Notes: generated by a model not told the origin, from the letters alone. 64,000 nt of DNA from a virus (IMGVR_UViG_3300036860_000563:1-64000); one strand, 5' to 3'. Positions 1,971 through 53,000 are shown, counted from the first letter of the stretch. Program-made: numbers and translations.

Positions 1971-3881
1971 TCACACCAACGTCTCAGTCGTGGAGATGTG
2001 GGAAGTTGACTCGTCGAAGACGTACGGGAGCTTAGCACCCCACGACTCACCGCGTGACACGGACGCGGTGATCGGAACGTTGAGTAGCTGATCGTCGTTC
2101 ATGATCTTACGAAGAGTGTGAGCGACGTCAGCGACGTGCTCACCGGGTACGTCCAGCAGCACCTCGTCGTGCACAGGTGCGAACATCCACTCATCGAGAC
2201 CCGCGCTGGCGAGCTCCACGAGCTTCATCTTAAAGATCTCACCAGCGCCGCACTGGATGATGAAGTTGACGAGCGCGTACTCCTTGCCCTCGTCGGCGAT
2301 GAGCCACCGCTGGGTGAACGGTGAGCGCACCCCACGCACACCACTACCGCGCGCCGCGCTTAGTGCGGTGTTGATCACGTCGCTCTGAAACCGTTGAACA
2401 CCCGGGAACCGCTGGTTCCACACACCGCGAAACGCGCGTGCGTTCTCGAGCGATATTCCGGCGGTCTGTGCGAACTTCGGTACGCCGGCGCCATATAGAG
2501 TAGCGTACGTGGCGTTCTTCGTTACCTGTCGCCGTGGATCGCTCTTAGTGATCGTGTCGTCATCATAGATCAGGCGCGCGAGGTTGACGAAGAAGTCACC
2601 ACCGTCGGTGAACGCCTTGATCATCGTGTGTTCATCCGCGACGTGAGCGAGTAGGCGAGCCTCGATCTGATCGAAGTCACACATCACGAGTGACCCACCC
2701 GCGTGACGAGTTGTGATCATGTTACGCACCACGTCACCGGGACGACTCGTGCCGAACCGTGGCAGGTTCTGCACGTTGGGACTGTCCATCGACATACGTG
2801 ACGTCCGCGCACCGAGTGTGTTGATGGACGGGTGAAGCAGGTCGTCCGCGTCGGCCTCCTCGACGTAGAACCGCAGGTAGGTCGACGCCATCTTCTGCAC
2901 CTGCCGACGCTGCAGCACAGCGCGCGCGAGCGGGTGATCGATCCCGTCGAGAACGTCGGCGTCGAGTGACTTTGCGCCCGACTTCGTCGCCTTGGAGAAC
3001 GTGAACCCGGCGTCTTCGAGGATCTCAATGATCGCAGTACTGGAGCCAGGTTTCACACCGTACTCCCGCCGACACCACTCTTCGACGCGTTCACAGTAGT
3101 CCTCGAACTCACGCAGCTTCTGCGTGGCGAGTGCTCGATCGACGTGCACACCGTAGCGCTCCATGCGCTCGGTGACCCAGAGGACGGCGCGCTCCAGGTC
3201 ATACGCCTTTGGTGCCTCTCGCTGGGTTATCGGGTAGTGGTGCTCGAAGAGCCTATACGTCAGCACCGGGTCCAGGGCGGCGTACGCCCAGTACGGCTGG
3301 TAGTCCAGCGGAACCGTAGCCCACGTCCACTTCGTGCCCGCGAGCTCGGTCTGCAGACCGGCGGCGGCGGCGTCGACGTGTCGCGTCGCCTGGTTCTTCA
3401 GTGCCATCGACATGTGAGGTTCGTTGATCCGTGACAACACCATGGTGTCATGCACCCGGTGACGCGGTAAACACACACCAGCGCGGTCGAGGAACGCCAT
3501 GTCAAAGGTGCTGTTGTGTAAGATCCAGTCACCCTGCCACGAGCGCACGAGCGACTCCATGATGCCACTCCACCGGTCCCACGAGAACGCGAAGCCACGC
3601 GCACCGTCGCCGACCTGCACGAGACGAAGTGTGTCTCGTTGCTTATTCAACCCGGTCGTCTCGGTGTCCAGTCCCAGCGCGTTCACCGGACGACGCTCGC
3701 CCAGCCATGAGTGAAGGGTGATGACGTCCTCGAGTGAGTTGACGAGGTGAAGCTTAACGTCACCGAGTGTCACGAGTTCACAGCTTCTTCCTCTTCCTCT
3801 TCCTCTTCCTCTTCCTCTTCCTCTTCCTCTTCCCACAGTGCCACACTGTGTCCGGTCATAGCACTGTGGAATGAGTGCCAC
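1971..3881 (-). CDS. polA: DNA polymerase I (family A) with 3'-5' exonuclease domain
   Basis: Exo motif LGLDTETTGLN. Polymerase motif B KNATYATLYGAG and motif C APVHDEVLLDVP. N-terminus uncertain: GTG 3881 includes (GR)9 encoded by (CTCTTC)n; alternative GTG at 3773 (VTLGDVKLHL). Neither has a good RBS. Confidence 0.85.
   Translation of the reverse strand: MALIPQCYDRTQCGTVGRGRGRGRGRGRGRGRSCELVTLGDVKLHLVNSLEDVITLHSWLGERRPVNALGLDTETTGLNKQRDTLRLVQVGDGARGFAFSWDRWSGIMESLVRSWQGDWILHNSTFDMAFLDRAGVCLPRHRVHDTMVLSRINEPHMSMALKNQATRHVDAAAAGLQTELAGTKWTWATVPLDYQPYWAYAALDPVLTYRLFEHHYPITQREAPKAYDLERAVLWVTERMERYGVHVDRALATQKLREFEDYCERVEEWCRREYGVKPGSSTAIIEILEDAGFTFSKATKSGAKSLDADVLDGIDHPLARAVLQRRQVQKMASTYLRFYVEEADADDLLHPSINTLGARTSRMSMDSPNVQNLPRFGTSRPGDVVRNMITTRHAGGSLVMCDFDQIEARLLAHVADEHTMIKAFTDGGDFFVNLARLIYDDDTITKSDPRRQVTKNATYATLYGAGVPKFAQTAGISLENARAFRGVWNQRFPGVQRFQSDVINTALSAARGSGVRGVRSPFTQRWLIADEGKEYALVNFIIQCGAGEIFKMKLVELASAGLDEWMFAPVHDEVLLDVPGEHVADVAHTLRKIMNDDQLLNVPITASVSRGESWGAKLPYVFDESTSHISTTETLV
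3785..3833. repeat. (CTCTTC)n hexanucleotide microsatellite, about 8-9 units
   Basis: Seen directly. Translates as (GR)n in the polA frame and as poly-Glu in overlapping ORF 3770..4015. Confidence 0.9.
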
Positions 3882-7837: not shown

Positions 7838-8109
7838 TCTCTGTGATCACTCTCTCGCCCAGCGGTTGGGTGAGACCTCTCGCCTCGCTACGCTGGATCA
7901 TACCAGGTACCTGCGCTAAAACCGTAGGTTACGTTGTGTGGACGACGACGCCCGGCGACCGCTTGTCAACTCGTCGGGAGTCGCCGCCGTCTCACCTTGT
8001 GGTACCGGTTCTTCACTCTTCCCCTCACAAGAAGCAAAGAACCACTCACTAGGTGTCCTCGCCGGGCTCGCCGCTGCACGACTCAAACAAGCTTAGACAC
8101 CTACGAGCG

Positions 8110-8183
8110 TAGCGGGAACCGGACTCGAACCGGTGACCTCTAGGTTATGAGCCTAGTGAGCTGCCGAGCTGCTCCACCCCGCG
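8110..8183 (-). tRNA. tRNA with CAT anticodon (Met or Ile2-type)
   Basis: Manual fold of the reverse strand: D-stem GAGC/GCTC, anticodon stem CTAGG/CCTAG with loop CTCATAA, variable loop AGGTC, T-arm ACCGG-TTCGAGT-CCGGT. Acceptor pairs 6/7 (position 1-72 is a C-U mismatch). Confidence 0.55.
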
Positions 8184-11600: not shown

Positions 11601-12122
11601 CTACGTACGGTGTGAAGATGAGGGTTGAACGATCGCCGTCGCACCCTCGTTCGTGAGAGCACGATGTACACGGTTGGCCTCATCGAGGTCGGTGTGGGTG
11701 AGCACGTCGACGGGCGCGGACTCGACGAACTCCTTCGCATCGCGAATGCCGAGGGCGAGTAGTCGACGAATCGTCCGGATGATGGGCAGCTTGTTGGGGC
11801 CAACGTCGACGAGCCGAACCGTGAACTCGGTGGGCTCATCTTCCACGCTCAACTCGCCGACGGCATCACCAACCGCATCACCAGGTGGTGACACGAGACG
11901 TGCCGGCTCGGCTGTGACGTCGAACGTCTCCGCGAACCGACGATGAAACTCGGTCAGCTCGACGAGAGTGAGGCCCCCGAACGCTTCGAGTAGGTCAGAG
12001 ACACGACTCTCACCACTCTCACCACTCTCACCACTCTCACCACTCTCACCACTCTCACCACTCTCACCACTCTCACCACTCTCACCGCTCTGCTCCACGG
12101 GTCTTTGCCTCCTCACAACCAC
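11601..12122 (-). CDS. ribosomal protein bL12 (L7/L12)-like protein with an inserted (ESG)9 repeat
   Basis: C-terminal domain EFTVRLVDVGPNKLPIIRTIRRLLALGIRDAKEFVESAPVDVLTHTDLDEANRVHRALTNEGATAIV matches the L7/L12 CTD pattern (EFDV.L...G.NK..VIK.VR..TGLGLKEAK.LVE.AP). N-terminal-domain-like SDLLEAFGGLTLVELTEF. The ESG repeat is encoded by (CACCACTCT)9. Confidence 0.65.
   Translation of the reverse strand: MVVRRQRPVEQSGESGESGESGESGESGESGESGESGESRVSDLLEAFGGLTLVELTEFHRRFAETFDVTAEPARLVSPPGDAVGDAVGELSVEDEPTEFTVRLVDVGPNKLPIIRTIRRLLALGIRDAKEFVESAPVDVLTHTDLDEANRVHRALTNEGATAIVQPSSSHRT
12005..12089. repeat. (CACCACTCT)n 9-nt tandem repeat, about 9 units
   Basis: Seen directly. In frame as (ESG)n within the bL12-like gene. 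Confidence 0.9.
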
Positions 12123-13768
12123 GGCCAGTGTGCGTCACGACCGGCCTCTAAGAGTGGGATCAACGTGAACGCCGCGTCGGTGAGGCCACCGAAGGTGTGA
12201 CGGTTGTGACTACCCGCCGGCGCGTGACCGCGCTCGTAGCCCGCGAGGTTCCACGTGTAGAGTGGCGTCGTCGTGGGAACGACGGCGCTCACCTCGACGT
12301 GAGTGGCGTCCGCGGCGGCCTGCTCGTCGGTGATGATGATGACGCGATCGTGACCAGCGTGGTGTTGACGCAGCGCCGCGGCGGTCGCGGTGCCACCACC
12401 GAGGAAGAAGCCGTCACTCGCCCAGCGGGAGAGTGTCGTGAGTAACGACTCACCGTCCCGGAGTGCGAACGTCTTCGTGTGCGCGCCGTGTGCGTCGCCC
12501 CACACTCGGGCGGCCGACGAGAACGACACGAGGTCGGCGCTCTTCGCGCGACCGGCGAGCGCCGCGCCAAAGATCACCGCGACGTCCCAGCGCTTAAGTG
12601 TGCTGTTGTGCGAGAACTGCTCGTCCATCGAGGACGACGTGTCCACCAGGATGAGCGTCCTGCCGGTGAGCCGAGGAACGTTCGCGAGACAGTAGTTGAG
12701 CGCGCGCTCGAGCGGGTACGCCCAGCGGAGGCTGGGTGCCGCGCGGTGCGCCGCGAGAAGCCGGAGGGGAAGCTGCCGTGACCGCGCGACCTCGATCGGG
12801 TCGGCGAGCCTCGCTGCCACGGTCTGTGCGACCGCGTCTCGGACGCCCGCCTCGTCGAGGTTGCGCAGGTTACGTAGTAGTGCCATGTACCCCATCGAGG
12901 GCGCGAGTGCCTCCCACAGTAGGTTCTTCGGTAGCCGGTCGCCGGCTAGCGAGAGCACGTTCTCCCACGTCATACCCGCCGCGGCCAACGTCTCTACGTC
13001 GAGTAGCCCTGAGATACTGCTCTCTGCGACCAGCGAGCGCAGCTCAGCGTTGCGACGAACCGTCGTCAGCAGCTTGGGAACGGCGTTGTCGTGGCCGTGC
13101 CGCCGGTCCAGGGCGTACTTGAACAGCTCACCTTGCCACGGTGCGGTCGGACGTGGGTGAGTCAGCTCGACGACGTCCCCGAACCGAAACGCGTGTGATG
13201 TGGTGTCGTACTTGAGCAGCGCGCGCTCGGTGTAGAGTCGCCGAACGGCGTCGGTGACGCCACGCTTAACCGGCTGGGGTAGGTTCCGACCGTAGGACAC
13301 GACGTAGTACGCCAGCAGCTCACCCGGCTCGTCGGCGCGCCGCAACACCGCGTCGACGAGCGCCCGCGCCAGTCCCCTGTCGTCGGAGAGGCCCGGTACC
13401 TCGTAGGCCGGTACGGACCCGAGGTCAGGACGCTCGCGGCGCGCTCGGATGAACTCGACGGCCCCGACGAGCGGCGCGGAGCGAAGGTCGGCGTCGGCGC
13501 GGAGCCAGCGGAGAAGCTGGAACACCCACACCGGGTCGGTGACCGCGACGGCACGCACCAGCTCACGAAACCGTGTGTCTCGCCGGGACGCTGACTCGTA
13601 GAACGCATCCTCACCCACGAGGTTTGACACGGCGAGCAGGAACAGCTCACTCTTCTCGTCACGGGCGTAGCCGGGTGCGCCCTCGTGTGTGAGACCGCCG
13701 GGTGTAGCCTCGGTGGTGACCGGGCTGGTCGTCGCCGGACGGACGCCGAGAACGTTGAACTTAGTCAT
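12113..13768 (-). CDS. rsr: Ro60/Rsr ortholog (TROVE domain + vWA with MIDAS)
   Basis: Blocks matching human Ro60: ALLRNL (identical to Ro60 LTALLRNLG); RTLILVDTSSSMDEQ ~ RFLLAVDVSASMNQ (DxSxS MIDAS); GGGTA ~ GGTD; RVIIITDEQ ~ VFIVFTDNE; GGLTDAAFTLI ~ CGFDTGALDVI. Confidence 0.7.
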   Translation of the reverse strand: MTKFNVLGVRPATTSPVTTEATPGGLTHEGAPGYARDEKSELFLLAVSNLVGEDAFYESASRRDTRFRELVRAVAVTDPVWVFQLLRWLRADADLRSAPLVGAVEFIRARRERPDLGSVPAYEVPGLSDDRGLARALVDAVLRRADEPGELLAYYVVSYGRNLPQPVKRGVTDAVRRLYTERALLKYDTTSHAFRFGDVVELTHPRPTAPWQGELFKYALDRRHGHDNAVPKLLTTVRRNAELRSLVAESSISGLLDVETLAAAGMTWENVLSLAGDRLPKNLLWEALAPSMGYMALLRNLRNLDEAGVRDAVAQTVAARLADPIEVARSRQLPLRLLAAHRAAPSLRWAYPLERALNYCLANVPRLTGRTLILVDTSSSMDEQFSHNSTLKRWDVAVIFGAALAGRAKSADLVSFSSAARVWGDAHGAHTKTFALRDGESLLTTLSRWASDGFFLGGGTATAAALRQHHAGHDRVIIITDEQAAADATHVEVSAVVPTTTPLYTWNLAGYERGHAPAGSHNRHTFGGLTDAAFTLIPLLEAGRDAHWPWL

Positions 13769-14443
13769 AATAAGCAGCTCTACTTCCTGCCCGCGTAGAA
13801 GTCGTCACACGAAAACGTGCGACCCAGGGTGATCGGCGCACCGAGCGCGTGAGAACCCATACCTACGCTCTCACACCCGCACACTCGCTAGGTCGCACGT
13901 TCTCACATCGTGCTCCCCGAGGACGTGTCGTTCACGGCTTGTCACAAACCGGAGAAGTAACCGTGAACTTCGCACCGAGGAGATAAGACGAGGACAGTGA
14001 TGATCAACGTTGACCGTCATCGTCCCACTTCAGCTGATGCTCGTATCTCGTTGAGTTGACCGAGTTCAGGGTGACCAACGGTGTGATTTCAGCCAATTTG
14101 AAGTAACCGTCGGTCGGCGCACCGGTCAACCTATGACAACACTAACAGGATCTTGTCGAGCGTGCAAACTCGTACCCACCGAGTGGCCGTCTAACGACAC
14201 TTGATGATCACTTGGTGATCGTCCGGTGGTGTCACTGGGTGACACCCGCACGCCGGAGTGGTTGTAGATTCAAGGCAGTAGACGACGGTGGGCGCCCAGC
14301 CGCCAAGCCTAGGCGCCCACTCACACAACTAGATAAACAGGAGTAGCTGTGTTGGATCCTATCATCACCTACAGACGGGAGTTGCCACAGGTGCTTAAGC
14401 TAATAGTACCACAACCGCGCTACGTCCACGGTTGTGAGCTGCC
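13769..14443. promoter_or_regulatory. 670-bp divergent intergenic region between rsr and primase: several palindromes/hairpins, candidate location of a Y-RNA-like ncRNA
   Basis: No ORF with coding signature. Palindrome GGTGTCAC-TGG-GTGACACC at about 14227..14245. GC hairpin GGTGGGCGCC...GGCGCCCAC at about 14288..14320. Long-range 8-bp pairing GTTGACCG (14063) / CGGTCAAC (14133). Confidence 0.4.
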
Positions 14444-14468
14444 GTGACGACGGAGAAGATCACGGCAG
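14409..14468 (+). promoter_or_regulatory. two adjacent inverted repeats (CACAACCG/CGGTTGTG and GCTGCCGTGA/TCACGGCAGC) bracketing the primase GTG start
   Basis: Seen directly. The second 10-bp stem contains the start codon (14444). Confidence 0.4.
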
Positions 14469-17068
14469 CGCGTGGTTACACCGAGCGTGGTTGGTACGTG
14501 TTCGTACTCGGAACTGGTAAGACACCACTGCCGAACTGCGAGAACTGCCGGCCGGAGATCACCGGGCCTTACCACGATCGCACCAACTGCGCGTGTCTCA
14601 CGTGTCACGCGTTCTACGCGGCGACGCGTGACGTTGACCGACTCACCGAGATGATCGAGCATCACCCGCTCGGCATGCTCGCGGTCCGAACGGGTAACGT
14701 GAGTCGATTGCTCGTCGTGGACGCGGAGGCTACGAAGAGTGAACCAAACGGACCCACCGGTCTGGAGGTTCTCGACGCTTGGGAGTCGTGGACCAACGGT
14801 GTTACGCTGCCAGCGACGCTTCAGCAGCGCACCGGCGGCGGTGGGCTTCACGCGCTCTACCGACTACCGGTAAGTGCGCCCATCATACGCAGTCGGCGCG
14901 TCTTGCCCAGCGTTGACGTCAAGGCCGAGCACGGCTACGTGGCGGTGGGACCGGGCGGTGACGGCCGTCACTGGGTGGATGAGGTTACGCCGGTCGCCGA
15001 CGCACCGTCGGAGCTCATCGCGTGGCTCAGCACCCAGCGGAACGTAGTGTTGCGAGCCCACGGTGGTGAAGACACCACTCCGATCGACTACTCATTTGCC
15101 GTTGCCCGAACGCTGGACGTCATACCGGACGGCTGGCGTGAGGTGTTCACGCGTGACTTATCGTTCGTGCTTCGAAAGTCCGGTGTCTCACGTGAGCGCG
15201 CGACCGAGGTGCTGCGTGAGCGCTGGACGACGTTCGCCCAGCCACCCAACGCGCAGCACTACGTACCGTGGGAGCACGTCGAGTACAAGATCGAGCGTGA
15301 TTGGACCAACTTGTTGCCAGACACACCTAGCGGCGGCATGACCTGGGCGCAGAACATCATTGATGAGGCAGCACGACGACTTACAGCGAGCTCGGCATTG
15401 GTCCCTATAAACAGCTTAGTGAACGACGAAGAGATCGATGAAGAGATCGCGGGCAGTGGTGAGAGTGATGAGCCACCGGCGCTCACAACACCTCCGTTGG
15501 CCGTCGGAGAGCTGGACCCGGACCGGTGGTATGGCACCCATGACGACGGCACGGCCGCTCGGTTGGTGGCCGTCTGGGGTGACTGGTTCCGGGCCATCCC
15601 ACGACAACGTGGCGGCTACACCTGGCTGTACTACGACGGTGTCACCTGGCACCAGGACACACGCGAGCAGATCTGGCAGGCGGTCGCCGAGGTCGTTAGA
15701 CGACTGCCGGACGAGCTGCACGCCTGGGAAGCTCGGTGTGCCGCACTAACCGTGGAGGGCGTGCAAGACTGGCGAACGGCGGTGATCGGAGGCAACGGAC
15801 AGAACGCCGGTGAGTTTCAGGTCGTCGTCGCTCTTAGGAAGTACGGTGCGGCCTGCCGCGAAAACGCGCGAAAAGAGACGGGGGCCCGAGCGTTCGCGCG
15901 CCTGCGCGCGGTGGCAGAGGCGGACCTGGACGCTAACACACGGTACCTGGGGTTACCGGATGGTCGAGCGCTCGACGTGAGAGCTGTTCACGTAGGCTCA
16001 GACCGCTCCACGTGGTTGGTGCCGGCACGACCAGAGATGCTGCTGACCAAGCAACTCGGGTGTGCGTACGTCCCGGTAGACCAGACGTACCCGGGCACCT
16101 GCTACGAGTTCTCCAACTTCCGCCGGTACCTGGAGGGCGTGTTGCCGGACGCGAAGGTTCGAAGCACGCTGCAGGAGTTCGTCGGCTACGCGCTACTCGG
16201 TGAACCAAACGAGAAGATCGTAGTGCTGCTCCACGGCCCCCCGGACTCCGGCAAGACGGTGTTACTGGAGGTCCTAGAGGCACTCTTTGGCGACTACGGT
16301 GGCTGGACGGACGCGCAGGCCCTGGTCGCGGGTAAGGCTAAGTCTGCGCATCAAGAGTGGTTGAACAACATCCGTGGACTGCGACTGGTTTGCACCCCAG
16401 AGACCGCGCGTGGTGCGAAGATCGACGCCGCGTGGATGAAGTCGTACTCTGGTCGAGAGCCACAGACCACGCGAGGCGCGTACGGTGACACATCGGTCAC
16501 GTGGAAGCCGACCGGGATAATCTTCAACGCGTCGAACCACTACGTCGAATATGACGCGGATGACACCGCGGTGGCGGAACGAACCCAAGTTATCGAGTTT
16601 GAGCGGCAGTTTCTACGCGGTAATGATGAGCGTGATGATCAGTTGCCACAAAAGATCCAGGACGGTGAGCTACCCATCGTACTCAACTGGGCGCTGGACG
16701 GACTGCGCCGGCACGGCGAGCGCGGTGGCCTACTCATCGCCGATCGGATAGTCGAGTGGTCGAACCGTTACCGGATCGCGCAGGATACGACGGGACAGTT
16801 CATCGCGGACGCGAGAGAAGAGGGTTTCCTCGTCGAGGATGAGACCGGTGCCGTGTCGTCAGCGTTCGTAACGGTTAAGGTCGTCTACGAGCTGTACCTG
16901 TCGTGGTGCCGTGTGCAGTCGGTCCGGCACCCGCTCGGTCGCAACAGGTTCAACGCACACCTACGAACGGTCTACGGCTGGCGGGACGTTCGAAGTGGTG
17001 TGACACGCTGGCACGGCTGGACGTCACCGGTAACGAGCGCCGCCTCGGTTGTACTACTCCAGTGGTGA
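14444..17068 (+). CDS. bifunctional primase-polymerase (Prim-Pol) / D5-like SF3 helicase
   Basis: N-terminal prim-pol-like region with zinc motif CENC...CACLTC and LHALYRLP. Walker A VVLLHGPPDSGKT. Long C-terminal D5/helicase-like region. Confidence 0.8.
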   Translation: MTTEKITAARGYTERGWYVFVLGTGKTPLPNCENCRPEITGPYHDRTNCACLTCHAFYAATRDVDRLTEMIEHHPLGMLAVRTGNVSRLLVVDAEATKSEPNGPTGLEVLDAWESWTNGVTLPATLQQRTGGGGLHALYRLPVSAPIIRSRRVLPSVDVKAEHGYVAVGPGGDGRHWVDEVTPVADAPSELIAWLSTQRNVVLRAHGGEDTTPIDYSFAVARTLDVIPDGWREVFTRDLSFVLRKSGVSRERATEVLRERWTTFAQPPNAQHYVPWEHVEYKIERDWTNLLPDTPSGGMTWAQNIIDEAARRLTASSALVPINSLVNDEEIDEEIAGSGESDEPPALTTPPLAVGELDPDRWYGTHDDGTAARLVAVWGDWFRAIPRQRGGYTWLYYDGVTWHQDTREQIWQAVAEVVRRLPDELHAWEARCAALTVEGVQDWRTAVIGGNGQNAGEFQVVVALRKYGAACRENARKETGARAFARLRAVAEADLDANTRYLGLPDGRALDVRAVHVGSDRSTWLVPARPEMLLTKQLGCAYVPVDQTYPGTCYEFSNFRRYLEGVLPDAKVRSTLQEFVGYALLGEPNEKIVVLLHGPPDSGKTVLLEVLEALFGDYGGWTDAQALVAGKAKSAHQEWLNNIRGLRLVCTPETARGAKIDAAWMKSYSGREPQTTRGAYGDTSVTWKPTGIIFNASNHYVEYDADDTAVAERTQVIEFERQFLRGNDERDDQLPQKIQDGELPIVLNWALDGLRRHGERGGLLIADRIVEWSNRYRIAQDTTGQFIADAREEGFLVEDETGAVSSAFVTVKVVYELYLSWCRVQSVRHPLGRNRFNAHLRTVYGWRDVRSGVTRWHGWTSPVTSAASVVLLQW

Positions 17069-24732: not shown

Positions 24733-25860
24733 ATGGTGATGACGACACTCGCTGACGTTCTCGATCCGCACGCGCTTCGGCGCGCGCTGACGAGTGGACA
24801 CGTCCGCGCCCAAGCTCACCCCGAGCTACCCTACACGATCTTGAACTACACCGAGCGAGCGGCGTATGACGTCGCCTGGAATGACGTCACGTTGTCGTGT
24901 CGTGGTCTGATCTACGATCACAGCACGGACGTGGTGCTCGCGCGACCGTTTCGGAAGTTCTTCAACTACGGACAGCTCTTCAGCCACGGACAGTCTAGCG
25001 GACCGATCCTCGACCTCGACTCCGCGGCGGTGGTCACGGACAAGGCGGACGGTAGCCTGGGCATCTTATACCCAACACCGGACGACTGGGCGATCGCGAC
25101 CCGTGGTTCGTTCACGAGCGACCAGGCGGTGCACGCCACCGAGGTCCTGCGGTCACGGTACGCCACGTTCGAACCGCCGCCCGGGCTGACCGTCCTGGTG
25201 GAGATCGTGTACCCGGGCAACCGGATCGTGCTGAACTACGGCGACCTGGACGACCTGATCCTGCTCGGCGCGGTGGACATCGCCACAGGTCGCTCATTCG
25301 ATCCTGGCGTCTTGATGGGTTGGCCCGGACCGGTAACCGAGGTCTTCTCCTACGCCACCCTGGCACAAGCGCTGGTGGCTCCGCCACGACCGAACGCGGA
25401 GGGGCTCGTGGTGCACCTATCCCACAGTGATAACCGGGTGAAGTTTAAGCAGGAGGACTACGTCGCGCTACACCGCATCGTCACCGGGCTCAACGCTCGC
25501 ACGGTGTGGCGGCACGTCGTCAGTGGTGAGCCGCTCGGTGAACTAATCACTCCGCTGCCCGACGAGTTTCACCCGTGGGTGCGCGCTGTCACCGCCGAGC
25601 TCACCGCTCGCGTCGAGCGACAGCGCGCCGAGCTGGTGCGGGCGTACGACGACGTGCTGTGGGAGCTGTCGCAGCTGACGAAGACGGCAGAGGACTGGAC
25701 GCGTAAGGACTTCGCGCTCCACGTAGCGTCCCACCCTCACCGCTGGGCGATGTTTATGCTACTAGATCGGCGTGACATCTGCCCAACACTGTGGCAGCGC
25801 GCTCAACCCGAGGCGTCGTGGACGCCGTCCGGACGCACCTACTCGGAGGACACAGCGTGA
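24733..25860 (+). CDS. ATP-dependent RNA ligase
   Basis: Nucleotidyltransferase motif I VVTDKADGSLGIL (KxDG), motif IV EGLVVH, motif V RVKFKQ. GAGAAGG RBS. Confidence 0.65.
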   Translation: MVMTTLADVLDPHALRRALTSGHVRAQAHPELPYTILNYTERAAYDVAWNDVTLSCRGLIYDHSTDVVLARPFRKFFNYGQLFSHGQSSGPILDLDSAAVVTDKADGSLGILYPTPDDWAIATRGSFTSDQAVHATEVLRSRYATFEPPPGLTVLVEIVYPGNRIVLNYGDLDDLILLGAVDIATGRSFDPGVLMGWPGPVTEVFSYATLAQALVAPPRPNAEGLVVHLSHSDNRVKFKQEDYVALHRIVTGLNARTVWRHVVSGEPLGELITPLPDEFHPWVRAVTAELTARVERQRAELVRAYDDVLWELSQLTKTAEDWTRKDFALHVASHPHRWAMFMLLDRRDICPTLWQRAQPEASWTPSGRTYSEDTA

Positions 25861-33231: not shown

Positions 33232-34740
33232 ATGATGGGGTTGGGTGAGAGCGCGTCACTCGAGCGCACGCTCGCGGACGCGCTCGACCCGCCCGAACTA
33301 CGCTGGCGACGCGACCCGGTGGCGTGGGCCATCGAGCGCGCGCGGGTGGAGTTGTGGTCCAAGCAGCGTGAGATTCTCGAGTCCGTCCGGGACAACGCCA
33401 ACACGGCGGTGCGCTCGGCTCACTCCTCGGGGAAGAGCTGGCTCGCGTCCCTACTCACGTGCTGGTGGGTGGACGTTCACCCGGCGGGTCAGGCGCGCGT
33501 CATCACGACGGCACCGACGTCGAAGCAGGTCGACGCCGTGCTCTGGTACGAGATCAACCGGATGCACGCGCGGCTTGGATTACGTGGTCGTACGAACATG
33601 TCGGAGTGGTTTCTCGGTGACCGGATGCTCGTCGCGCTGGGTCGTAAGCCGCCGGACCACGTGGAGGCCGCGTTTCAGGGTTTACACGCGCGGTTCTTGC
33701 TTGCGATCCTAGACGAGGCATATGGCATCCCAAAGCACCTGTGGGACGAGGCCTCGACGTTGGCCAGCAACGAACACGGACGGGTGCTCGCGATCGGTAA
33801 CCCGGACGGACCCGGTGAGTTTGAAGAGAACTGCAAGGCCGGCTCCGGCTGGAACGTCATTCACATTGGGTACGCGGACACACCTAACTTCACGGGTGAG
33901 CCGGTGTCACGTGAGCTCGGTGAGTTGCTCGTGTCGCGCCGTTGGGTGGACGAGCGCCGGCACAAGTGGGGCGCTCACTCCGCGCTCTTTCAATCGAAGG
34001 TGGAGGGTAACTTTCCCAGCGGTGGTGACCCGTACGCCGTCATGCAGCATGACTGGGTGACGCGGTGCCGGCACCTGGAGCTACCCAGTGGTGAGCCGGT
34101 CGAGGCGGGCATCGACGTCGCGGCCGGTGGTGATCGAACCGTCATCCGGGAGCGACGCGGTGCGCGCGCCGGTCGTGAGGAATCGTTCCAGGACAACGAC
34201 CCGATGCGCACGGTGGGTCGACTCGTCGAAAAGATCGTTGAGTGGGAGATCCAGCGTGTGAAGATCGACGTGACGGGTCTCGGCTGGGGCATCTACGGCC
34301 GAGTCCGTGAACTGTCGTCCCGACACAACCCAGCGGGAGAGACGACACACTCGGCGGAGGTGATCGACGTCAACTTCGGCGCCGGACCACCGCCCGGCTA
34401 CGCGAAGAAGTTCCTCAACATGCGCGCCTACCTGTGGTGGGAGGTCGGGCGTGAGCTGTCGCGCCTCGGTCTCTGGGACCTCACCGAGGTGGATGACGAC
34501 ACGGTTCACGAGCTCACAACGCCGCGCTATCAGATCCTCGACTCGTACGGAAAGATTAAGATTGAGTCGAAGGACCACGTCATCAAGCGGCTCGGTCTCT
34601 CACCGGACCGCGCGGAGGCGCTCATCCTGGCGTTCTACGACGCTCGGACGACGGCCCGGGTCATCGGGTGGGCACACATGGCGAGCGCCGACCTGCTCCG
34701 GGACACGTCGCCCAGCGACAACGTGGCGGCGTACGAGTGA
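33232..34740 (+). CDS. terminase large subunit
   Basis: Walker A AVRSAHSSGKSW. Walker B-like LLAILDEAYGIP. C-terminal nuclease-like region with acidic residues (GIDVAAGGDRTV, KIDVTGLGWG). Confidence 0.8.
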   Translation: MMGLGESASLERTLADALDPPELRWRRDPVAWAIERARVELWSKQREILESVRDNANTAVRSAHSSGKSWLASLLTCWWVDVHPAGQARVITTAPTSKQVDAVLWYEINRMHARLGLRGRTNMSEWFLGDRMLVALGRKPPDHVEAAFQGLHARFLLAILDEAYGIPKHLWDEASTLASNEHGRVLAIGNPDGPGEFEENCKAGSGWNVIHIGYADTPNFTGEPVSRELGELLVSRRWVDERRHKWGAHSALFQSKVEGNFPSGGDPYAVMQHDWVTRCRHLELPSGEPVEAGIDVAAGGDRTVIRERRGARAGREESFQDNDPMRTVGRLVEKIVEWEIQRVKIDVTGLGWGIYGRVRELSSRHNPAGETTHSAEVIDVNFGAGPPPGYAKKFLNMRAYLWWEVGRELSRLGLWDLTEVDDDTVHELTTPRYQILDSYGKIKIESKDHVIKRLGLSPDRAEALILAFYDARTTARVIGWAHMASADLLRDTSPSDNVAAYE

Positions 34741-35737: not shown

Positions 35738-35807
35738 GGGATGATAGCTTAACGGGAAAAGCCCGGGTCGCTCCCGGCGTACGCTGGTTCGAGGCCAGCT
35801 CATCCCA
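35738..35807 (+). tRNA. tRNA-like element with perfect acceptor, D- and T-arms but a non-canonical anticodon arm (CGC at the anticodon position)
   Basis: Manual fold: acceptor GGGATGA/TCATCCC + A73; D-stem GCTT/AAGC; T-arm GCTGG-TTCGAGG-CCAGC; variable loop CGTAC. Anticodon arm is either CCGGG-TCGCT-CCCGG (5-nt loop) or a 4-bp stem with loop GTCGCTC. Confidence 0.45.
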
Positions 35808-35951
35808 CGAGAGACACTCGTCCTAGGAGTGAGCGTCACTCGAGGATGTGAGTGGCGGAGGAAGTGGAGCCGGTTGGACCGTCCGGCGCGCGACACACCG
35901 GTACGATCGCTTGGTCAGCGAGGGACTACCGGTACCCGATCTCACATCCGA

Positions 35952-40130: not shown

Positions 40131-40694
40131 GTGACTACGATAGATCGGTGCGTGCGCTACCTGACGAGTGGCACCGACTGGGTGAGTGAACTTCGCGGCC
40201 TGCAGATGTTTGAGCTACTGCGCAGGCAAAATACGATGGCCCGACTGTCGACCGGTGCGAAGCACGGTTACGTTCACATCGGCAACTTGATCGATCGTGC
40301 ACCGTGCTCGGACGAACTGTGGTTCATACTCATGCCCGGAAGCTCAGACGTCGTGGACGTGATCGAGTGGCGTGACGCGCAGGACAGCATGCCTACGATC
40401 GTAGACGTACACGCCGACGTCCTACGTCTCGTGCACAACCCGAGTGACGACATGATTCGACATGGTCACAGCGTCACGGCGGACGCGTGGGAGTGGTGGT
40501 CCGACCCAGAGCGGCAGGAAACACTCACTCGTTCACTACGCGCCGCCGACGTCATCACAACGTCGTACGCCGAGCTGGTGCTGCCACTGCGTGCGTACAA
40601 CGAGAACGTAGTGCACCTGCCGGACGTGCAACCCGACTCGGCGAGTGAGTTCCTCGTCGGGTGGAGCGTCGCACTGGGCCTACTGACGCGGTGA
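40131..40694 (+). CDS. hypothetical protein
   Basis: GAGGTG RBS. Confidence 0.45.
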   Translation: MTTIDRCVRYLTSGTDWVSELRGLQMFELLRRQNTMARLSTGAKHGYVHIGNLIDRAPCSDELWFILMPGSSDVVDVIEWRDAQDSMPTIVDVHADVLRLVHNPSDDMIRHGHSVTADAWEWWSDPERQETLTRSLRAADVITTSYAELVLPLRAYNENVVHLPDVQPDSASEFLVGWSVALGLLTR

Positions 40695-41829: not shown

Positions 41830-44541
41830 GTGGCAGATCGACGACGTGATGTCGCTCACCTCATCGTGCCACACGGTGAGCTTTCACACGGTGCGAACGG
41901 TCACACACTTATCACAGCCACGGTCGGTAGTAGCGTCTCACCGATCAACGCGGCCGCCCAGCGGTTGGTTCCGATCGACACGTACCGTGCCCAGTACACC
42001 CAGCCGTGGCAGGACGAGGCCTGGGAATTCTACGCGTCGCTTGGAGAACTTAACCAGGGCGTTGAGTGGTTTGGTGAGGCGGTCTCACGTGTGCGACTAC
42101 TCGCCGCCGAGGTCACCCCCGGCGGGGATGAACCGAGGGTGCTGGACACCGGCCCGGCCGTCGACCTCGTCCAGCGGCTCTGCGGTGGCACGGACGGGCA
42201 GTCTCAGCTGCTCCGATCACTGGGTGTTCAGCTCTCGATACCGGGAGAGTGTTACTTCGTCGGCCGCGACGTGGGGCAGCTGAGCTCACTCGACACCACG
42301 TCGTTGGACGCCGAGCCCGACGAGGACGGTCGTGTCTGGACCGTTCAGCCGACGAACACGGTGCGGCAATCACAGCGTGGCGTCTGGCGGACGCTAGGTC
42401 GTCGCAATCGTACCGATACCCGGCGCGGCTGGGACCTACAGGTCGATGAGGCGGTGTGGGTACCACTGCCCGCCGAGACCCTCATCACTCGCGTCTGGGA
42501 CCGTGATGAGCGCTCTCCGTGGCTGGCCGCGTCACCCGCGCGGGCGGCGCTACCCATCATGCGTGAGATCGACATGTACAACCGGTACGTCATCGCGACG
42601 CTCATCTCACGTGTGGCGTCCAATGGCATCTTGCTGATCCCGGACGAGGTGACGCTACCCGTCAACCCCAACTACGAGACGGCCGCCGACCCGTTCATGG
42701 CCGAGCTGATCGACGTCATGCGCGCCGCGATCAAGAACCCCGGTTCACCGGCGTCCGCGGCACCGGTGCCACTCCGAGTGCGCTCCGAGTACATCGAACG
42801 GTTCCGACACCTCACGTTCGCGACGCCGTTTGACGACAAGATCTTTCAGGCACGCGCCGACGCGATCAAGCGACTCGCCACGACGCTCAACCTGCCGACC
42901 GAGGTTCTAACCGGTCTGGGTTCCGTAAATCATTGGTGCGGAGATGACTCCACGCAAGCATACGTGCGTGATCGTGGCTGGGTGAGCCAGCGAGAACTTA
43001 ACGTCGGTGACGTGATTCTTACCCTCAACCACGAGACCGGGCTGTCCGAGTGGCAACCCGTGCTTGACATCTACCGAGCTGACGTTACCGACGAACAGAT
43101 GCTGGCACTTACTAGCCGGTTTCACTCATCGGTGTCGACGATGGGTCACCGCTGGCCCGTCGTCACGTCGACGGGCTACGACTGGCGCACATCACAGACG
43201 CTCGAGGCGAGTGATCGACTCGTGCTCGCCGTTCCTCACACCGACCTACCGACGACGATGAAGTACAGCGATGAGTTCGTCGAGCTCGTCGCGTGGATGA
43301 CGACGGATGGCTCGATTCGTCGGTGGCAACCTAAGTATAAAGGATCACTCCAGGCCGCCGTCCACCAGTCACATCGTGCTCATCCTGGGCGAGTGGCGGA
43401 GATCAGGCGAGTGCTCACCGCACTGTACGGACCGGCGAGCGTGCACCCGCACGGGTGTGAACGAGCCACCGAGCCTCGCTGGCGTGAGCACCGGTACGAG
43501 TCGTACGGCATGACGACGTGGGTGCTCAACCGAGTCGCTGCCGAGTCGCTCACCGAGGTGATGAATGTTCCTGAGAAGATCGTTACGCGTGACTTTATCT
43601 ACTCACTGACGCGGGCGCAGCTCGACCTGTTCATCAACTCGTACGCGGCCGGTGATGGACGTCAGGGGCCTACCGGCAGCGTGATAAGCTCGCAGCGAGA
43701 CGCCCGCCGACTCGACGCACTCGAGCTCGCGGCGACGCTCGCCGGTTACGTGACGTCGCGTGGGGTCGGTACCGACGGTGGTTTTAAGACCGGGCCGATC
43801 ACCACTCAACGCGTTGTGCACCCGGACAACCAGAACGTACGTGGTGGGCGGTGTAGCGTGGGCGTTGGGAGCGTGACGTCGTACACGGGTGTTGTGTGGT
43901 GTCCCACGACGAAGAACGGTACGTGGTTCGCTCAGCACAACGGTAAGACGTTCTTCACCGGCAACAGCGCGTGGGCACTCAACGAGGACGGCATCAAGAT
44001 TCACATCTCACCCAAGGTTGAGATCATGACGCGGTGCCTCACCGTCGGCTACCTGCACCCGATGCTGCGAGCGCTGGGTGAGCCGACGACCACCGCGGCG
44101 GGTAACCGGATCATCATGTGGTACGACACGTCCGAGCTCACCCAGCGACCCGACCGGTCCCCGCTGGCCGTCCAGCTTCGGGAGATGCTGGTCATCAACG
44201 ACACCGCCGCACGGCGTGAGTCGGGTTTTGACGAGGCGGACGCTCCGACGGATGATGAGCTCGAGAAGATGATCCTCGAGAAGCTCGCCGTTAACCCACA
44301 GACGGCGACGGCTGCGCTGAAGGAGCTCACCGGGCTCAACATCGCCGAGCCGCCGCCCACGGTCCCGGTGGTCGGCACCCCGTCACAGCCCAGCGGCCCA
44401 GCTGGCGACGCGGGTGACGGAACCTCCGTGGAGTCGGCACCTCCGGTGTCGACCACCGGACCACCTAAGACGCGCGACGCACCGCCGCCGGCACCCGACG
44501 AGGGAGCCAACGCGGTCACGACCGGTAGCCGTGGTAACTAG
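41830..44541 (+). CDS. portal protein interrupted by an intein
   Basis: Lies immediately upstream of the MuF-like gene. Portal-like N-terminal region (YTQPWQDEAWEFYASLGEL). Hint + LAGLIDADG insertion. Pro/Gly/Ala-rich C-terminal tail. Confidence 0.6.
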   Translation: MADRRRDVAHLIVPHGELSHGANGHTLITATVGSSVSPINAAAQRLVPIDTYRAQYTQPWQDEAWEFYASLGELNQGVEWFGEAVSRVRLLAAEVTPGGDEPRVLDTGPAVDLVQRLCGGTDGQSQLLRSLGVQLSIPGECYFVGRDVGQLSSLDTTSLDAEPDEDGRVWTVQPTNTVRQSQRGVWRTLGRRNRTDTRRGWDLQVDEAVWVPLPAETLITRVWDRDERSPWLAASPARAALPIMREIDMYNRYVIATLISRVASNGILLIPDEVTLPVNPNYETAADPFMAELIDVMRAAIKNPGSPASAAPVPLRVRSEYIERFRHLTFATPFDDKIFQARADAIKRLATTLNLPTEVLTGLGSVNHWCGDDSTQAYVRDRGWVSQRELNVGDVILTLNHETGLSEWQPVLDIYRADVTDEQMLALTSRFHSSVSTMGHRWPVVTSTGYDWRTSQTLEASDRLVLAVPHTDLPTTMKYSDEFVELVAWMTTDGSIRRWQPKYKGSLQAAVHQSHRAHPGRVAEIRRVLTALYGPASVHPHGCERATEPRWREHRYESYGMTTWVLNRVAAESLTEVMNVPEKIVTRDFIYSLTRAQLDLFINSYAAGDGRQGPTGSVISSQRDARRLDALELAATLAGYVTSRGVGTDGGFKTGPITTQRVVHPDNQNVRGGRCSVGVGSVTSYTGVVWCPTTKNGTWFAQHNGKTFFTGNSAWALNEDGIKIHISPKVEIMTRCLTVGYLHPMLRALGEPTTTAAGNRIIMWYDTSELTQRPDRSPLAVQLREMLVINDTAARRESGFDEADAPTDDELEKMILEKLAVNPQTATAALKELTGLNIAEPPPTVPVVGTPSQPSGPAGDAGDGTSVESAPPVSTTGPPKTRDAPPPAPDEGANAVTTGSRGN
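42937..43965 (+). mobile_element. intein (Hint domain + LAGLIDADG homing endonuclease) inside the portal gene
   Basis: N-terminal Cys block CGDDSTQAYV...NVGDVILTLNHETG. LAGLIDADG-like motifs LVAWMTTDGSI and LFINSYAAGDGRQG. C-terminal block VVWCPTTKNGTWFAQHNGKTFFTGN|S. The C-terminal junction is ambiguous: HN at 43936..43941 is followed by Gly. Confidence 0.6.
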
Positions 44542-50042: not shown

Positions 50043-53000
50043 GCGCGCTCGAGGACGACATTGGCTTCACACTCACCACCGTCGTTGAGATGCCACGCGG
50101 TCTGACCACGGACGAGGCACACCGGTTTCTCGCCACAGGTGAGTTGCTAACCGACGTGAATGTCGAGCTGACGTTAGCGACCACGGAGGTAGGTCCCACG
50201 GTGGCGCGGAGAGCACCGAGTGCGAGTGAGGTGCGAGCGTGGCTCGCGGGTGTGGCACCAGCGATCACGGCCGGAGGGTCCAGCGCTAACGTACGTCACG
50301 AGAAGTACGTTGGTGAACTAGGTGATGATGACCAGACGGGTGAACACGCAGGCCGATGGTGTGAGTCAGCTGAGCTGGTTAAACCGGTTGAACTGGCTAA
50401 AACTGGTACAAAATTGGTGCCGGTAACCTCCTCCGAGACGCCCGAACCGTCACCGGCCGTAGTCGAACCAACGGTGAAATCAGTGATGGATGTGACGCAT
50501 ACCGGAGCTATGATCGCATTAAGGCCCGCCGACGTCGACGCCCAGCGACTCGCCATTGACGGCGGTGAGGAACCGAACGAGCTGCACTGCACGCTCTACT
50601 ACCTGGGAGACGCCACCAACTTCTCCGAGGACGCGCGTGCGCAACTCATCGACCTCGTGCGTGAGTACGTGTACGACTCACCCACGCTCACGGTGGATGG
50701 CTTTGCGATCTCCATGTTCAACCCACCGGGTACCGAGCGAGTTGACGATGACATGGAGCGTGAGCCGTGCGTCGTGCTGGGCCTGTCCGGGTCCGCGTTG
50801 ACGTCGGTGCACGACGCCGTCGCGACCGCCATCGAGGACCACGGTGTCGACCTACCGGAGCAGCACTCACCCTGGGTTCCGCACATCACACTCGTCTACA
50901 CCGATGACGCGGACCTGAGTGCGTTCACCGAGAAGACCGGACCGGTGACACTTGATACGGTGTGCGTGTACTTCGGTGATGACCGATACGAGATTCCACT
51001 GGACGAGAGTAGTGACGATGACGATGACGACGAGCAAACGACGGGTGACGCTGCGTACGACGTTGAGCTGAGTGACGCGGGTGAGCTGATCGTACCGAAC
51101 GTGCTGCTCGACTGGCGAGCGTGGGTGACGCTCGAGAGAGAACGTGACGTCAACCTACCGAGTGGGCCCGGTCACCAGCTTCGGGACTACTGGGTTCACG
51201 GTCCCGGCGCACTGAAGATCAGGTGGAACACGGAGGGTGACGGCACGCGGTGCATCCGGTACCTTCGTAAGTACGTGAAGGATCCGGGTGGCCTGTGCCA
51301 AGAGTATCACCGACTCGCGACCGGTAAGAGCATGCACCCACACCCGGGACGAGTCACCGAGTCCAGCGACACCGTAACACTGAGTGACACCTCGTTGTAC
51401 GGTAGACCTAACGCCGAGGGAGGTGCTGACGTGCCCTGGCACGTTGAGAAGCGTGGTGATGAGTTCTGCGTCGTGAAGGACGCCGATGACAGTGTGGCTG
51501 GGTGTCACAACCTACGAACAGACGCGATCAACCAGCTGCGCGCGCTCTACGCGAGTGAACCAGATGTGGCCGCCGACGCGCGCGTCGTAGGTGACTGCCC
51601 ACCGGGACATCATCGTATGCCCAGCGGTGAGTGCATGGCCGACGAGGACATGACGTCACCAACACCAACGTCAACACCGGCAGTAGGCCCGAGTGGCGCG
51701 TACGAGCTCGACCCGGCCGCGACGATCGCACCGTGGGAGGGTGTGCTGACCCTGGAGGGTGTCGAGTCCGGTGACGGTCGAATGTTCGCCGCCGGTTCAC
51801 TGTCGTGGGACACAACGCCGAGTGACGGTCTACCGCTGATGTGGCAGAAGGAGACGAGTCACGGTGGTCAGGGTGACGTCTCGGTGCGAGTTGGTAGCGT
51901 TCAGGAGGTGTGGCGTGAGCCCGACCCGGGTGGACGCGCCGACGTTAACATGATCAGGGGTCGGGGCGTCTTCGACCTGCGCAACCCGGACGGCCACGAG
52001 GCCCACCGACGCATGTGGGACGGCTTCATGTCCGGCAACTCGGTGGACGTGGACTCGGTGAAGGACGCGAGCGTCGAGGTCGTCTACCCAGCGACGGTAA
52101 CGGAGAGTGGTAGCGCGAGTTCTCAGGTGTTCGGCACGCCCGAGCTCACGGTGTTTCACCGTGGACGCATCCGCGGCACGACGCTCGTCGAGTTTCCAGC
52201 GTTCACCGAGGCGCGGCTGCACCTCATCAACCCGGTGACGGCGAGCGCCGAAGAGTCCGGTGACGATGACGTGACGAGCGCAGAGACGGCGACGACGACT
52301 CTCACCGGCTCCAGCACCGGTGCGACCGAGGTGCACGTCGCGGCGTCATCAGACGCGTCGTGGGACGCCGGTGCCAACGAGACCAGGCTACCGTCGCCGT
52401 TACCACTGAGCGTCGCTAAGAAGATGTTCGCGTACGTGGACACGTCGCAGGTCGAGAACGGTCACGTACCGAAGAGTGCGGGTAAGCTGCCCCACCACGA
52501 GGTGAGCGTGACCGGTGCTCCGGGGGCGGCCAACCTCACCGGTGTGTCGGCCGCGATCGGCGCGCTGCACGGCGCGCGAACGCCGGTGAGCGTTCCGAGT
52601 GGAGCGCGTCACGCGATCTACGAGCACCTCGCGGCTCACCTGCGTGCCGCTGGGCGTGAGCCACCGCCGTTCTCACTCGTGGCTGAGCGAACGCAGACCC
52701 TCGTGGCGGCGACCAGCGTCATTCAGATCTCGGACACACCGCCACGTGAGTGGTTCGCCGAGCCGGTCGACGTGCCGGCGCACGGTGCGCTGACCGTCAC
52801 CGCCGAGGGCCGTGTGTACGGCTACCTCGCACCGCTCAACGTACGTCACCGTTCGTTCTCCGGGCGCAACCAACTCGTACCGTTTAAGAACGTCGACTAC
52901 GACCGGTTCATGGGTGGTGAGACGATCGTCGCGGACGGCGGGCGTGTGACGACCGGCCCGATCACGATGAACTGTGGCCACCTACCACCGGTTCCGGGTT

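Follow-up and report, generated by a model that had tools for sequence, protein, structure and literature searches.

The 64,000-nt stretch IMGVR_UViG_3300036860_000563:1-64000 (hereafter the window) is DNA of an actinobacterial phage with a G+C content of ~62%. On its minus strand lies a gene, rsr, whose predicted product is a full-length orthologue of Ro60/Rsr, and upstream of it, on the same strand, lie two short hairpins that belong to a conserved, covarying RNA family found upstream of TROVE genes. The pairing of Ro60 with Y RNAs is already known from bacteria and other phages: phage Ro60 genes are on record since the Bxz1 genome (Pedulla et al., 2003) and Y RNAs next to them since 2014 (22 phages), and a structural study of a phage Ro60 with two Y-like RNAs dates from 2025 (PMC12135203). 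The elements of the locus that are discussed first are as follows.

12113..13768, minus strand: rsr, Ro60/Rsr orthologue (551 aa, ATG start), with a TROVE HEAT-repeat ring and a vWA domain bearing a DxSxS MIDAS (metal ion-dependent adhesion site)
13911..13984, minus strand: proximal Y-RNA-like hairpin (YrlB-like), 74 nt
14054..14131, minus strand: distal Y-RNA-like hairpin (YrlB-like), 78 nt
13811..13904, minus strand: very stable leader hairpin, 94 nt, between the proximal RNA and the rsr ribosome-binding site
14139..14167, minus strand: candidate promoter of a Y RNA-rsr transcript, picked by eye (TTGCAC, 17 nt, TAGTGT, then 7 nt to the distal RNA)
11601..12122, minus strand: homologue of bL12 (L7/L12), 173 aa

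Genes run leftward to the left of 13768 and rightward to the right of 14444; since the flanking genes point apart, the 675-nt gap between them (13769..14443) is a divergent intergenic region. A preliminary description of this DNA had called the gap free of open reading frames (ORFs) and proposed it as the place of a Y-RNA-like transcript. The first point holds and the second is supported: neither strand of the gap contains an ORF of ≥50 aa, only chance ORFs of 41–49 aa, and two Y-RNA-like elements were located there by covariance model, both on the rsr strand. At the level of DNA similarity, 12113..14443 has no match among 50,697 phage records in "near" mode, nor does the gap alone in "distant" mode.

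The identity of the protein is supported by sequence profile and by predicted fold, as the preliminary description had supposed. The translation contains all of the diagnostic blocks that it had listed (ALLRNL, the DxSxS MIDAS, GGT, the TDE strand and the C-terminal GxxD), within the segments MALLRNLRNL, LILVDTSSSM, FLGGGTATA, VIIITDEQ, and FGGLTDAAF. The MIDAS corresponds to D376, S378, and S380; in an alignment of 27 homologues, D376 and S380 are invariant and S378 is at least 90% conserved. Pfam assigns TROVE (3.2e-17) and, weakly, VWA_2 (5e-4). A single-sequence search of the PDB returns only the Ro60 of phage phiLo (4.7e-25); a profile built from 20 homologues matches phiLo Ro60 (9kop, 1.1e-44), Deinococcus radiodurans Rsr (2nvo, 2.2e-42, residues 19–533 against 19–523), Ro60 (9nen, 2e-39), and Xenopus Ro60 (1yvp, 2.6e-36). 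The AlphaFold2 model (predicted local distance difference test score 86.2, predicted template modeling score 0.84) is helical, with repeats, to about residue 363 and forms an α/β domain thereafter. A predicted structure lacking the TROVE fold had been named beforehand as an outcome that would speak against the identification; the model instead matches Ro60/Rsr structures only (13 of 13 Foldseek matches in the PDB at E ≤ 0.001; template modeling (TM) scores 0.62–0.74). Most of the nearest relatives, at 58–64% identity, are either metagenomic proteins or cellular ones from Micromonospora, Dactylosporangium, and Streptomyces; annotated phage "Ro-like RNA binding proteins" share at most 47% identity with the window Rsr, and the closest phage relative, an IMG/VR locus designated L001, encodes an Rsr that is 53% identical.

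The two RNAs were identified with a covariance model, R1, for which 49 short hairpins from upstream of the TROVE genes of other actinobacteria and actinophages were used, with the window excluded. Run over the whole window with filters off (128 kb searched), R1 matches the proximal RNA with 55.7 bits (E 1.2e-10) and the distal RNA with 51.3 bits (E 1.2e-9), and the third-best match reaches 18.9 bits; all 16 modeled pairs are standard in both RNAs. The proximal RNA, AUCUCCUCGG-UGCGAAG-UUCACGGU-UACUUCUCCGGUUUGUGACAAG-CCGUGAA-CGACACGUC-CUCGGGGAGCA, consists of an 8-bp closing stem, a 5′ motif (GGUGCGAAG, CGAA core) that would be the Rsr-binding motif by analogy, an inner stem, and a pyrimidine-rich apical loop starting with UACUUC; its end lies 142 nt before the ATG of rsr, and its minimum free energy (MFE) fold agrees with the model (−27.9 kcal/mol, z −2.2). 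The distal RNA, GGUUGACCGG-UGCGCCG-ACCGACGGU-UACUUCAAAUUGGCUGAAAUCACA-CCGUUGGU-CACCCUGAA-CUCGGUCAACU, has the same architecture, with an 8-bp closing stem followed by GGUGCGCCG and a motif core of CGCC rather than CGAA or CGCA; it ends 285 nt upstream of the ATG, and its MFE fold likewise agrees with the model (−30.9 kcal/mol, z −3.8; none of 200 shuffles as stable). The 69-nt spacer hairpin between the two RNAs (13985..14053) is no more stable than shuffled sequence (z −0.3). The third match, at 40246..40317 on the plus strand (R1 18.9 bits, E 0.034), was rejected as probably a chance match. It carries a good 5′ motif (CCGGTGCGAAGCACGGTTAC) and lies in frame inside an ORF (40131..40694) within a tightly packed row of genes; one closing-stem pair and several inner-stem pairs are non-standard, the MFE fold is not Y-like (z −1.1), and R2, a second covariance model built from 49 YrlA-type elements, scores it at 14.4 bits.

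The family to which the two RNAs belong was delineated from a short conserved stretch. The minus strand of the gap and the region upstream of the L001 Ro gene have in common the sequence CGGTGCGAAGT-N-CGGYTACTTC, which corresponds to the 5′ portion of bacterial Y RNAs in the description of Chen et al. (PMC4201824), a GNCGAA-type motif followed by a conserved YUAY. Viral and genome collections were scanned for GGTGCGMAG-N3-9-GNYTACTTC, a pattern for which many chance matches are expected in unrelated phyla. At least 239 loci were found; among the matches listed, 91 have a TROVE gene in the fetched DNA, and in 91 of these 91 the motif lies upstream of that gene on the same strand. Adjacency to TROVE formed no part of the motif search, so this placement is independent evidence. 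The elements near TROVE genes number at least 123, comprising at least 60 short hairpins of ~72–85 nt and at least 63 YrlA-type elements of 115–155 nt whose tRNA-like domain has a T-loop and usually a D-arm; the usual order among the matches listed is short hairpin, YrlA-type element, rsr. Aligned with MAFFT and folded with RNAalifold, the 49 short elements underlying R1 form a two-helix hairpin with compensatory changes in 11 of 16 pairs. In a further alignment, A4, of both window RNAs with 42 relatives (44 sequences), 93.7% of cells are paired in the common structure, against 33–52% when partners are slid; both sides have changed in 11 of 16 pairs, the covariation score is 0.452 (0.07–0.13 for slid controls), and none of 500 shuffles reaches the observed value on any of five measures. 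Within A4, the proximal closing stem departs from the family consensus by compensatory changes, C-G to U-A and U-A to C-G. The collection of the family involved no selection for the 3′ strand (UGAUCUCGG), for either stem, or for TROVE adjacency. In actinobacteria and in their phages, the hairpin Y RNAs upstream of TROVE genes form a family that is large and covaries strongly. Its consensus beside TROVE genes is GGUGCG(C/A)AG, which suggests that the published GNCGAAN0-1G motif is looser in actinobacteria.

The window locus lacks the tRNA-like YrlA module. R2 aligns both window RNAs through the common outer module only, with 66–75 tRNA-like positions deleted (proximal RNA 45.7 bits, 66-position insert deleted; distal RNA 42.7 bits, insert deleted). 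Of 92 TROVE loci whose upstream sequence covers 800 nt or more, 84 have a perfect T-arm within 1200 nt upstream on the same strand, whereas none occurs within 1200 nt upstream of the window rsr, the only T-arms of the window being those of three tRNAs. Read by eye, the R2 table contains about five loci without a full-length YrlA-type match (L020, L069, L111, L217, and L219). Chen et al. (PMC4201824) found a tRNA-like domain in one or more Y RNAs of every characterized species, and the phage is one of a small minority with hairpin-type RNAs only.

Between the proximal RNA and rsr, the region 13769..13910 (minus strand) folds with −68.2 kcal/mol (z −5.2; none of 200 shuffles as stable). The leader hairpin that it contains is an inverted repeat, I1, with 17-nt arms, and includes a truncated third copy of the Y motif (CUCGGUGCGCCGA and UCACCCUG), equivalent to the distal RNA minus its inner stem-loop; the copy is backed by direct repeats D1, D2 (11 of 11 nt identical to the distal RNA), and D7. 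Neither R1 nor R2 matches 13811..13904 at E ≤ 5–10. The leader hairpin may represent a Y RNA in decay, a processing site of RNase III type, or a leader structure, possibly one that binds Rsr. Many rsr leaders of actinobacteria and phages have, 30–40 nt before the start, a GC hairpin followed by a U-run that also covers the Shine-Dalgarno sequence (for example L056, L091, L093, and L127; also L010, L060, L081, L114, and L126), one such leader reading CCTCCCCTC-cacgt-GAGGGG-CTTTTTC-ATG. A GGUGCG-like motif within 60 nt of the rsr start was found in 9 of 85 leaders, in several cases in the loop of the Shine-Dalgarno hairpin. Hairpins of this kind, with U-run and GGUGCG, suggest attenuation between the Y RNAs and rsr, and perhaps autoregulation by Rsr.

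The elements at the two ends of the presumed transcript can be described more briefly. The sequence TTGCAC-17-TAGTGT is a weak candidate for the promoter of the Y RNA-rsr transcript; its −10 element fits the actinobacterial form TANNNT, and the candidate falls below the σ70 consensus threshold of the tool used. Downstream, the GTG start of the bL12 homologue and the stop codon of rsr share 10 nt, an overlap suggestive of translational coupling. The bL12 protein is recognized by Pfam (C-terminal domain 3.7e-14, dimerization domain 1.2e-4) and carries a (Gly-Glu-Ser)x9 repeat in its N-terminal part. Genes for bL12 are known from viruses (PMC6375957). The idea that the bL12-like gene regularly accompanies rsr was rejected, no counterpart having been found by tblastn in any other fetched locus, the other TROVE loci included.

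The preliminary description had cited three structures in support of an RNA in the gap.

14228–14235/14239–14246: "perfect palindrome" with 8-nt perfect arms and a 3-nt spacer, GGTGTCAC-TGG-GTGACACC
14288–14299/14309–14320: GC-rich hairpin with 12-nt arms, 92% complementary, GTGGGCGCCCAG-N9-CTAGGCGCCCAC
14055–14062/14123–14130: 8-bp long-range pairing, inverted repeat I10, 100% complementary

Only the last belongs to a statistically supported element: the pairing, quoted as 14063/14133 by its ends, is real and closes the distal RNA as its outer stem. The palindrome exists, one base away from the 14227..14245 originally given, and lies outside both RNAs, upstream of them; the GC-rich hairpin (14288..14320) also exists, upstream of both RNAs and part of neither. 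Since no T-run follows them, these two structures are not terminators; they may be operators of the divergent promoter region. A role as repeated operators was rejected, because both are single-copy in the window: a search allowing 3 mismatches gave one poor second match to the palindrome and no repeated operator set, and the GC hairpin has no convincing further copies in the window.

Among the closest characterized systems is Thermus phage phiLo (PMC12135203; PDB 9KOP, 9L5Y), whose Ro60 has been shown in vitro to bind two Y-like RNAs encoded by the phage and to form an assembly with host polynucleotide phosphorylase (PNPase). As in the window, a phage Ro60 gene adjoins two short stem-bulge-stem Y-like RNAs, and phiLo Ro60 is the best PDB match of the window Rsr (profile 1e-44; fold E 3.6e-18, TM 0.64–0.74), although identity is only 24%. 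Binding and assembly with PNPase are in vitro results for phiLo and predictions for the window system. At the phiLo locus, R1 finds a GG-UACUUC-containing hairpin beside the gene with a weak score (24 bits, E 1e-4). The R1 hairpins of this type (L251, 2989–3054 and 3193–3250) lie 3′ of the annotated Ro60 coding sequence and overlap the coding sequence phiLo_25, whereas the window RNAs lie upstream of rsr; these positions are at odds with the phiLo paper, which places Yrl1/Yrl2 upstream (PMC12135203).

In arrangement the window resembles Mycobacterium smegmatis, where Rsr-bound YrlA and YrlB derive from one precursor that is encoded on the rsr strand, in front of rsr (Chen et al., 2014; PMC4201824); processing of the window RNAs would be similar. 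Hairpin Y RNAs with pyrimidine-rich loops were described in three species (PMC4201824), and the systems in that study, including D. radiodurans Yrn2 and Salmonella Typhimurium YrlB, share with the window RNAs a motif on the 5′ strand of an end-paired stem. M. smegmatis YrlB was reported to have a possible T-arm (PMC4201824), which the window RNAs, compared with it by description, lack. YrlA (Rfam RF02553), including that of mycobacteriophages Bxz1 and ET08, has the same genomic position as the window RNAs. The outer module of actinobacterial and actinophage YrlA-type RNAs is the module of the window RNAs (closing stem, GGUGCG-type motif, GG-YUACUUC, and 3′ UGAUCUCGG), and R2 aligns the window RNAs across it end to end; the T-arm, acceptor-like stem-loop, and D-arm of YrlA (66–75 model positions) are entirely absent from them. 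The working model for function is RYPER, the Rsr-Y RNA-PNPase particle of D. radiodurans and S. Typhimurium, in which a Y RNA on the Ro60 ring links an exoribonuclease; the RYPER tethering RNAs (Yrn1, YrlA) carry a larger second module that the window RNAs do not have, and neither a gene for PNPase nor an interaction with it is visible in the window. Against this background the absence of a tRNA-like module, the truncated third copy in the leader, and the coupled bL12 gene are minor twists of the window locus.

Taken together, the two RNAs are probably YrlB-like Y RNAs, each combining a predicted Rsr-binding stem module with a pyrimidine-rich apical loop, and the Ro60/Y-RNA module is likely to open a leftward operon, one transcript of which would yield two Y RNAs and rsr. 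Transcription, processing, Rsr binding, and the identity of an effector are inferred by analogy with M. smegmatis YrlA/YrlB and with Ro60-Yrl1/Yrl2 of phage phiLo. On this analogy, a leftward early or middle operon would start with the Ro60/Y-RNA module at about 14131 on the minus strand, and the transcript would run through the hairpins at 14131..14054 and 13984..13911 (~75 nt), the structured leader, rsr (13768..12113), and the translationally coupled bL12-like gene. The hairpins would be excised from the common precursor; each would bind the outer surface of the Rsr ring via the 5′ strand (GGUGCGAAG or GGUGCGCCG) of its end-paired stem, and the bound RNAs would gate the entry of RNA 3′ ends into the ring cavity, tether Rsr to a host effector via the apical loop, or both. 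The best-documented effector is the 3′–5′ exoribonuclease PNPase, with which Rsr would form a RYPER-like particle degrading structured RNA.

Several observations weigh against this interpretation. The preliminary description had proposed searching the gap with Y_RNA and YrlA covariance models and giving up the idea if they found no Rsr-binding helix; with the Rfam models, 13600..14600 has no match at E ≤ 10, and the whole window has none at E ≤ 1. A scan of 13600..14600 for σ70 consensus promoters and terminators gave 0 promoter-like and 0 terminator-like sites. The published GNCGAAN0-1G motif is only approximated, by UGCGAAG in the proximal RNA (U for the first G) and UGCGCCG in the distal one, and the YrlB identity of the hairpin family rests on description, not on alignment with M. 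smegmatis YrlB. Because the motif used to gather the family came from the window and L001, part of the score, contributed by the 5′ motif, arises by construction. PNPase as a partner is extrapolated from Deinococcus, Salmonella, and Thermus, in which it is the RNA bearing the larger second module that is tethered to PNPase. Two more metagenomic contigs, JGI 3300036861 and Logan SRR11742948, are identical to the window over 4.7 and 7.7 kb, respectively, and with all three contigs identical over the region there is no within-lineage variation to test.

The Rfam result is to be read together with its controls. An Rfam YrlA match occurs ~190 nt upstream of Bxz1 gp220 (32.5 bits), and the Ro genes of VanLee (47 bits), LuckySocke, BRock, and two IMG/VR phages also have YrlA matches upstream; the Bxz1 and VanLee scores are under the 69-bit gathering score, yet clear. 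In these phages and IMG/VR relatives YrlA is on the Ro strand in every case, 100–800 nt upstream of the Ro gene, so that the expected site in the window is the minus strand of the gap. A rule of refutation relying on Rfam models alone, such as the one just described, would have rejected the Y-RNA idea wrongly. Over the window, the gap, and the island at 34.7–36.2 kb, Rfam returns only three tRNAs and chance matches to EFASI and snoR117 (E > 2). The tRNA island at 35.0–36.0 kb, which had been suggested as an alternative site for Y RNAs, was accordingly rejected, as it contains two tRNA genes and nothing Y-RNA-like.

Of the other readings, the one that fares best takes the hairpins as cis-acting parts of the rsr leader (sites of Rsr autoregulation, or processing or stability elements) and not as stable trans-acting Y RNAs. 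It accommodates the position of both hairpins in the 5′ untranslated region on the rsr strand with no terminator before rsr, the truncated third motif copy inside a very stable hairpin just before the ribosome-binding site, and the GGUGCG-like motif near the rsr start in 9 of 85 related loci, in several of them in the loop of the Shine-Dalgarno-covering hairpin. However, the equivalent upstream elements of M. smegmatis accumulate as discrete Rsr-bound RNAs cut from a precursor (PMC4201824), and the closing stems that delimit the ~75-nt units covary across 44 sequences, as expected of excised RNAs, which makes a purely cis-acting role unlikely; the cis- and trans-acting roles are in any case compatible with each other. 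A pared-down Ro60 particle that works without a tRNA-like Y RNA and is wired differently from RYPER is improbable. Two leads point to it: the truncated Y motif within the leader hairpin 13811..13904 could be an Rsr-binding site through which rsr is autoregulated, and the bL12 homologue could make the ribosome, not PNPase, the target or partner of the particle.

It is very improbable that the elements are non-functional, decaying relics brought in with a host-derived rsr, the gap now serving as a divergent promoter or regulatory region. Such an origin would suit an Rsr nearer to cellular proteins (58–64% identity) than to known phage ones (≤47%), which suggests horizontal acquisition, as well as the absence of the tRNA-like YrlA that most loci have, one visibly truncated copy, and a gap lying between divergent operons. 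The distal motif also has C where all collected members have A, an invariance that holds by construction, as the scan pattern requires the A. Decay is nevertheless hard to reconcile with the two full-length copies, in which the 16 modeled pairs are standard, with compensatory substitutions, despite divergence from every relative, and both of which fold more stably than shuffles, or with an intact rsr ORF that keeps all conserved blocks. Finally, the probability that the matches are due to chance and the noted structures are ordinary promoter-region hairpins is negligible: the GC-rich 64-kb window does give many weak covariance-model matches (8–19 bits), and the palindrome and GC hairpin are without support as RNA elements, but the two matches score 51–56 bits (E ~1e-9 to 1e-10) with a 32-bit gap to the next, both lie no more than 370 nt from the start of rsr and on its strand, and the motif is associated with TROVE in 91 independent loci among the matches listed, so that, with the covariation of the family, this reading is effectively refuted already.

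Elsewhere in the window lie the following phage genes; thymidylate synthase and dCMP deaminase are also encoded, and there are three tRNA genes.

1971..3881: family-A DNA polymerase
14444..17068, rightward: primase-polymerase/D5-type helicase
33232..34740: large terminase
41830..44541: portal protein
53739..55469: major head protein

Several further features concern RNA. A T4 Rnl1-type RNA ligase is encoded at 24733..25860 on the plus strand (PHROG 562, 1e-62; Pfam RNA_lig_T4_1, 3e-9), and a 1146-aa head-associated protein (50039..53479, plus strand) has a 2′–5′ RNA ligase-superfamily domain near residues 150–340; together with Rsr and the tRNAs, these ligase features hint at an RNA-repair theme. 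An odd tRNA-like gene at 35738..35808 (plus strand; 42.6 bits with the tRNA model) lacks two loop positions, and its anticodon arm, CCGGG-UCGCU-CCCGG, can be read with a 5-nt loop or as a 4-bp stem with a 7-nt loop and anticodon CGC. A tRNA-Met(CAT) gene at 8109..8183 (minus strand, the rsr strand) lies 3.9 kb downstream of rsr and shows a C1/A72 mismatch atop the acceptor stem, a feature of bacterial initiator tRNA. In the Streptomyces phages LuckySocke (L004 6967–7199) and BRock (L006 7079–7242), in which the Ro gene lies inside a large tRNA gene array, near-threshold Rfam manA matches (47.8 and 49.7 bits; gathering score 55.2) occur just downstream of the Ro genes.

This locus adds to Ro60/Y-RNA particles, a conserved device of RNA surveillance, a phage with a cellular-like Rsr and hairpin-type Y RNAs only. 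Annotation pipelines that depend on Rfam would overlook these RNAs, for which it gives no match at E ≤ 10. With an Rnl1-type ligase, tRNAs, and a bL12 homologue encoded in the same genome, the phage is a reasonable system in which to ask whether Ro60 particles belong to an RNA-repair or translation-takeover toolkit; and if its RNAs do bind Rsr, the tRNA-like module would be dispensable for the use that the phage makes of the particle.

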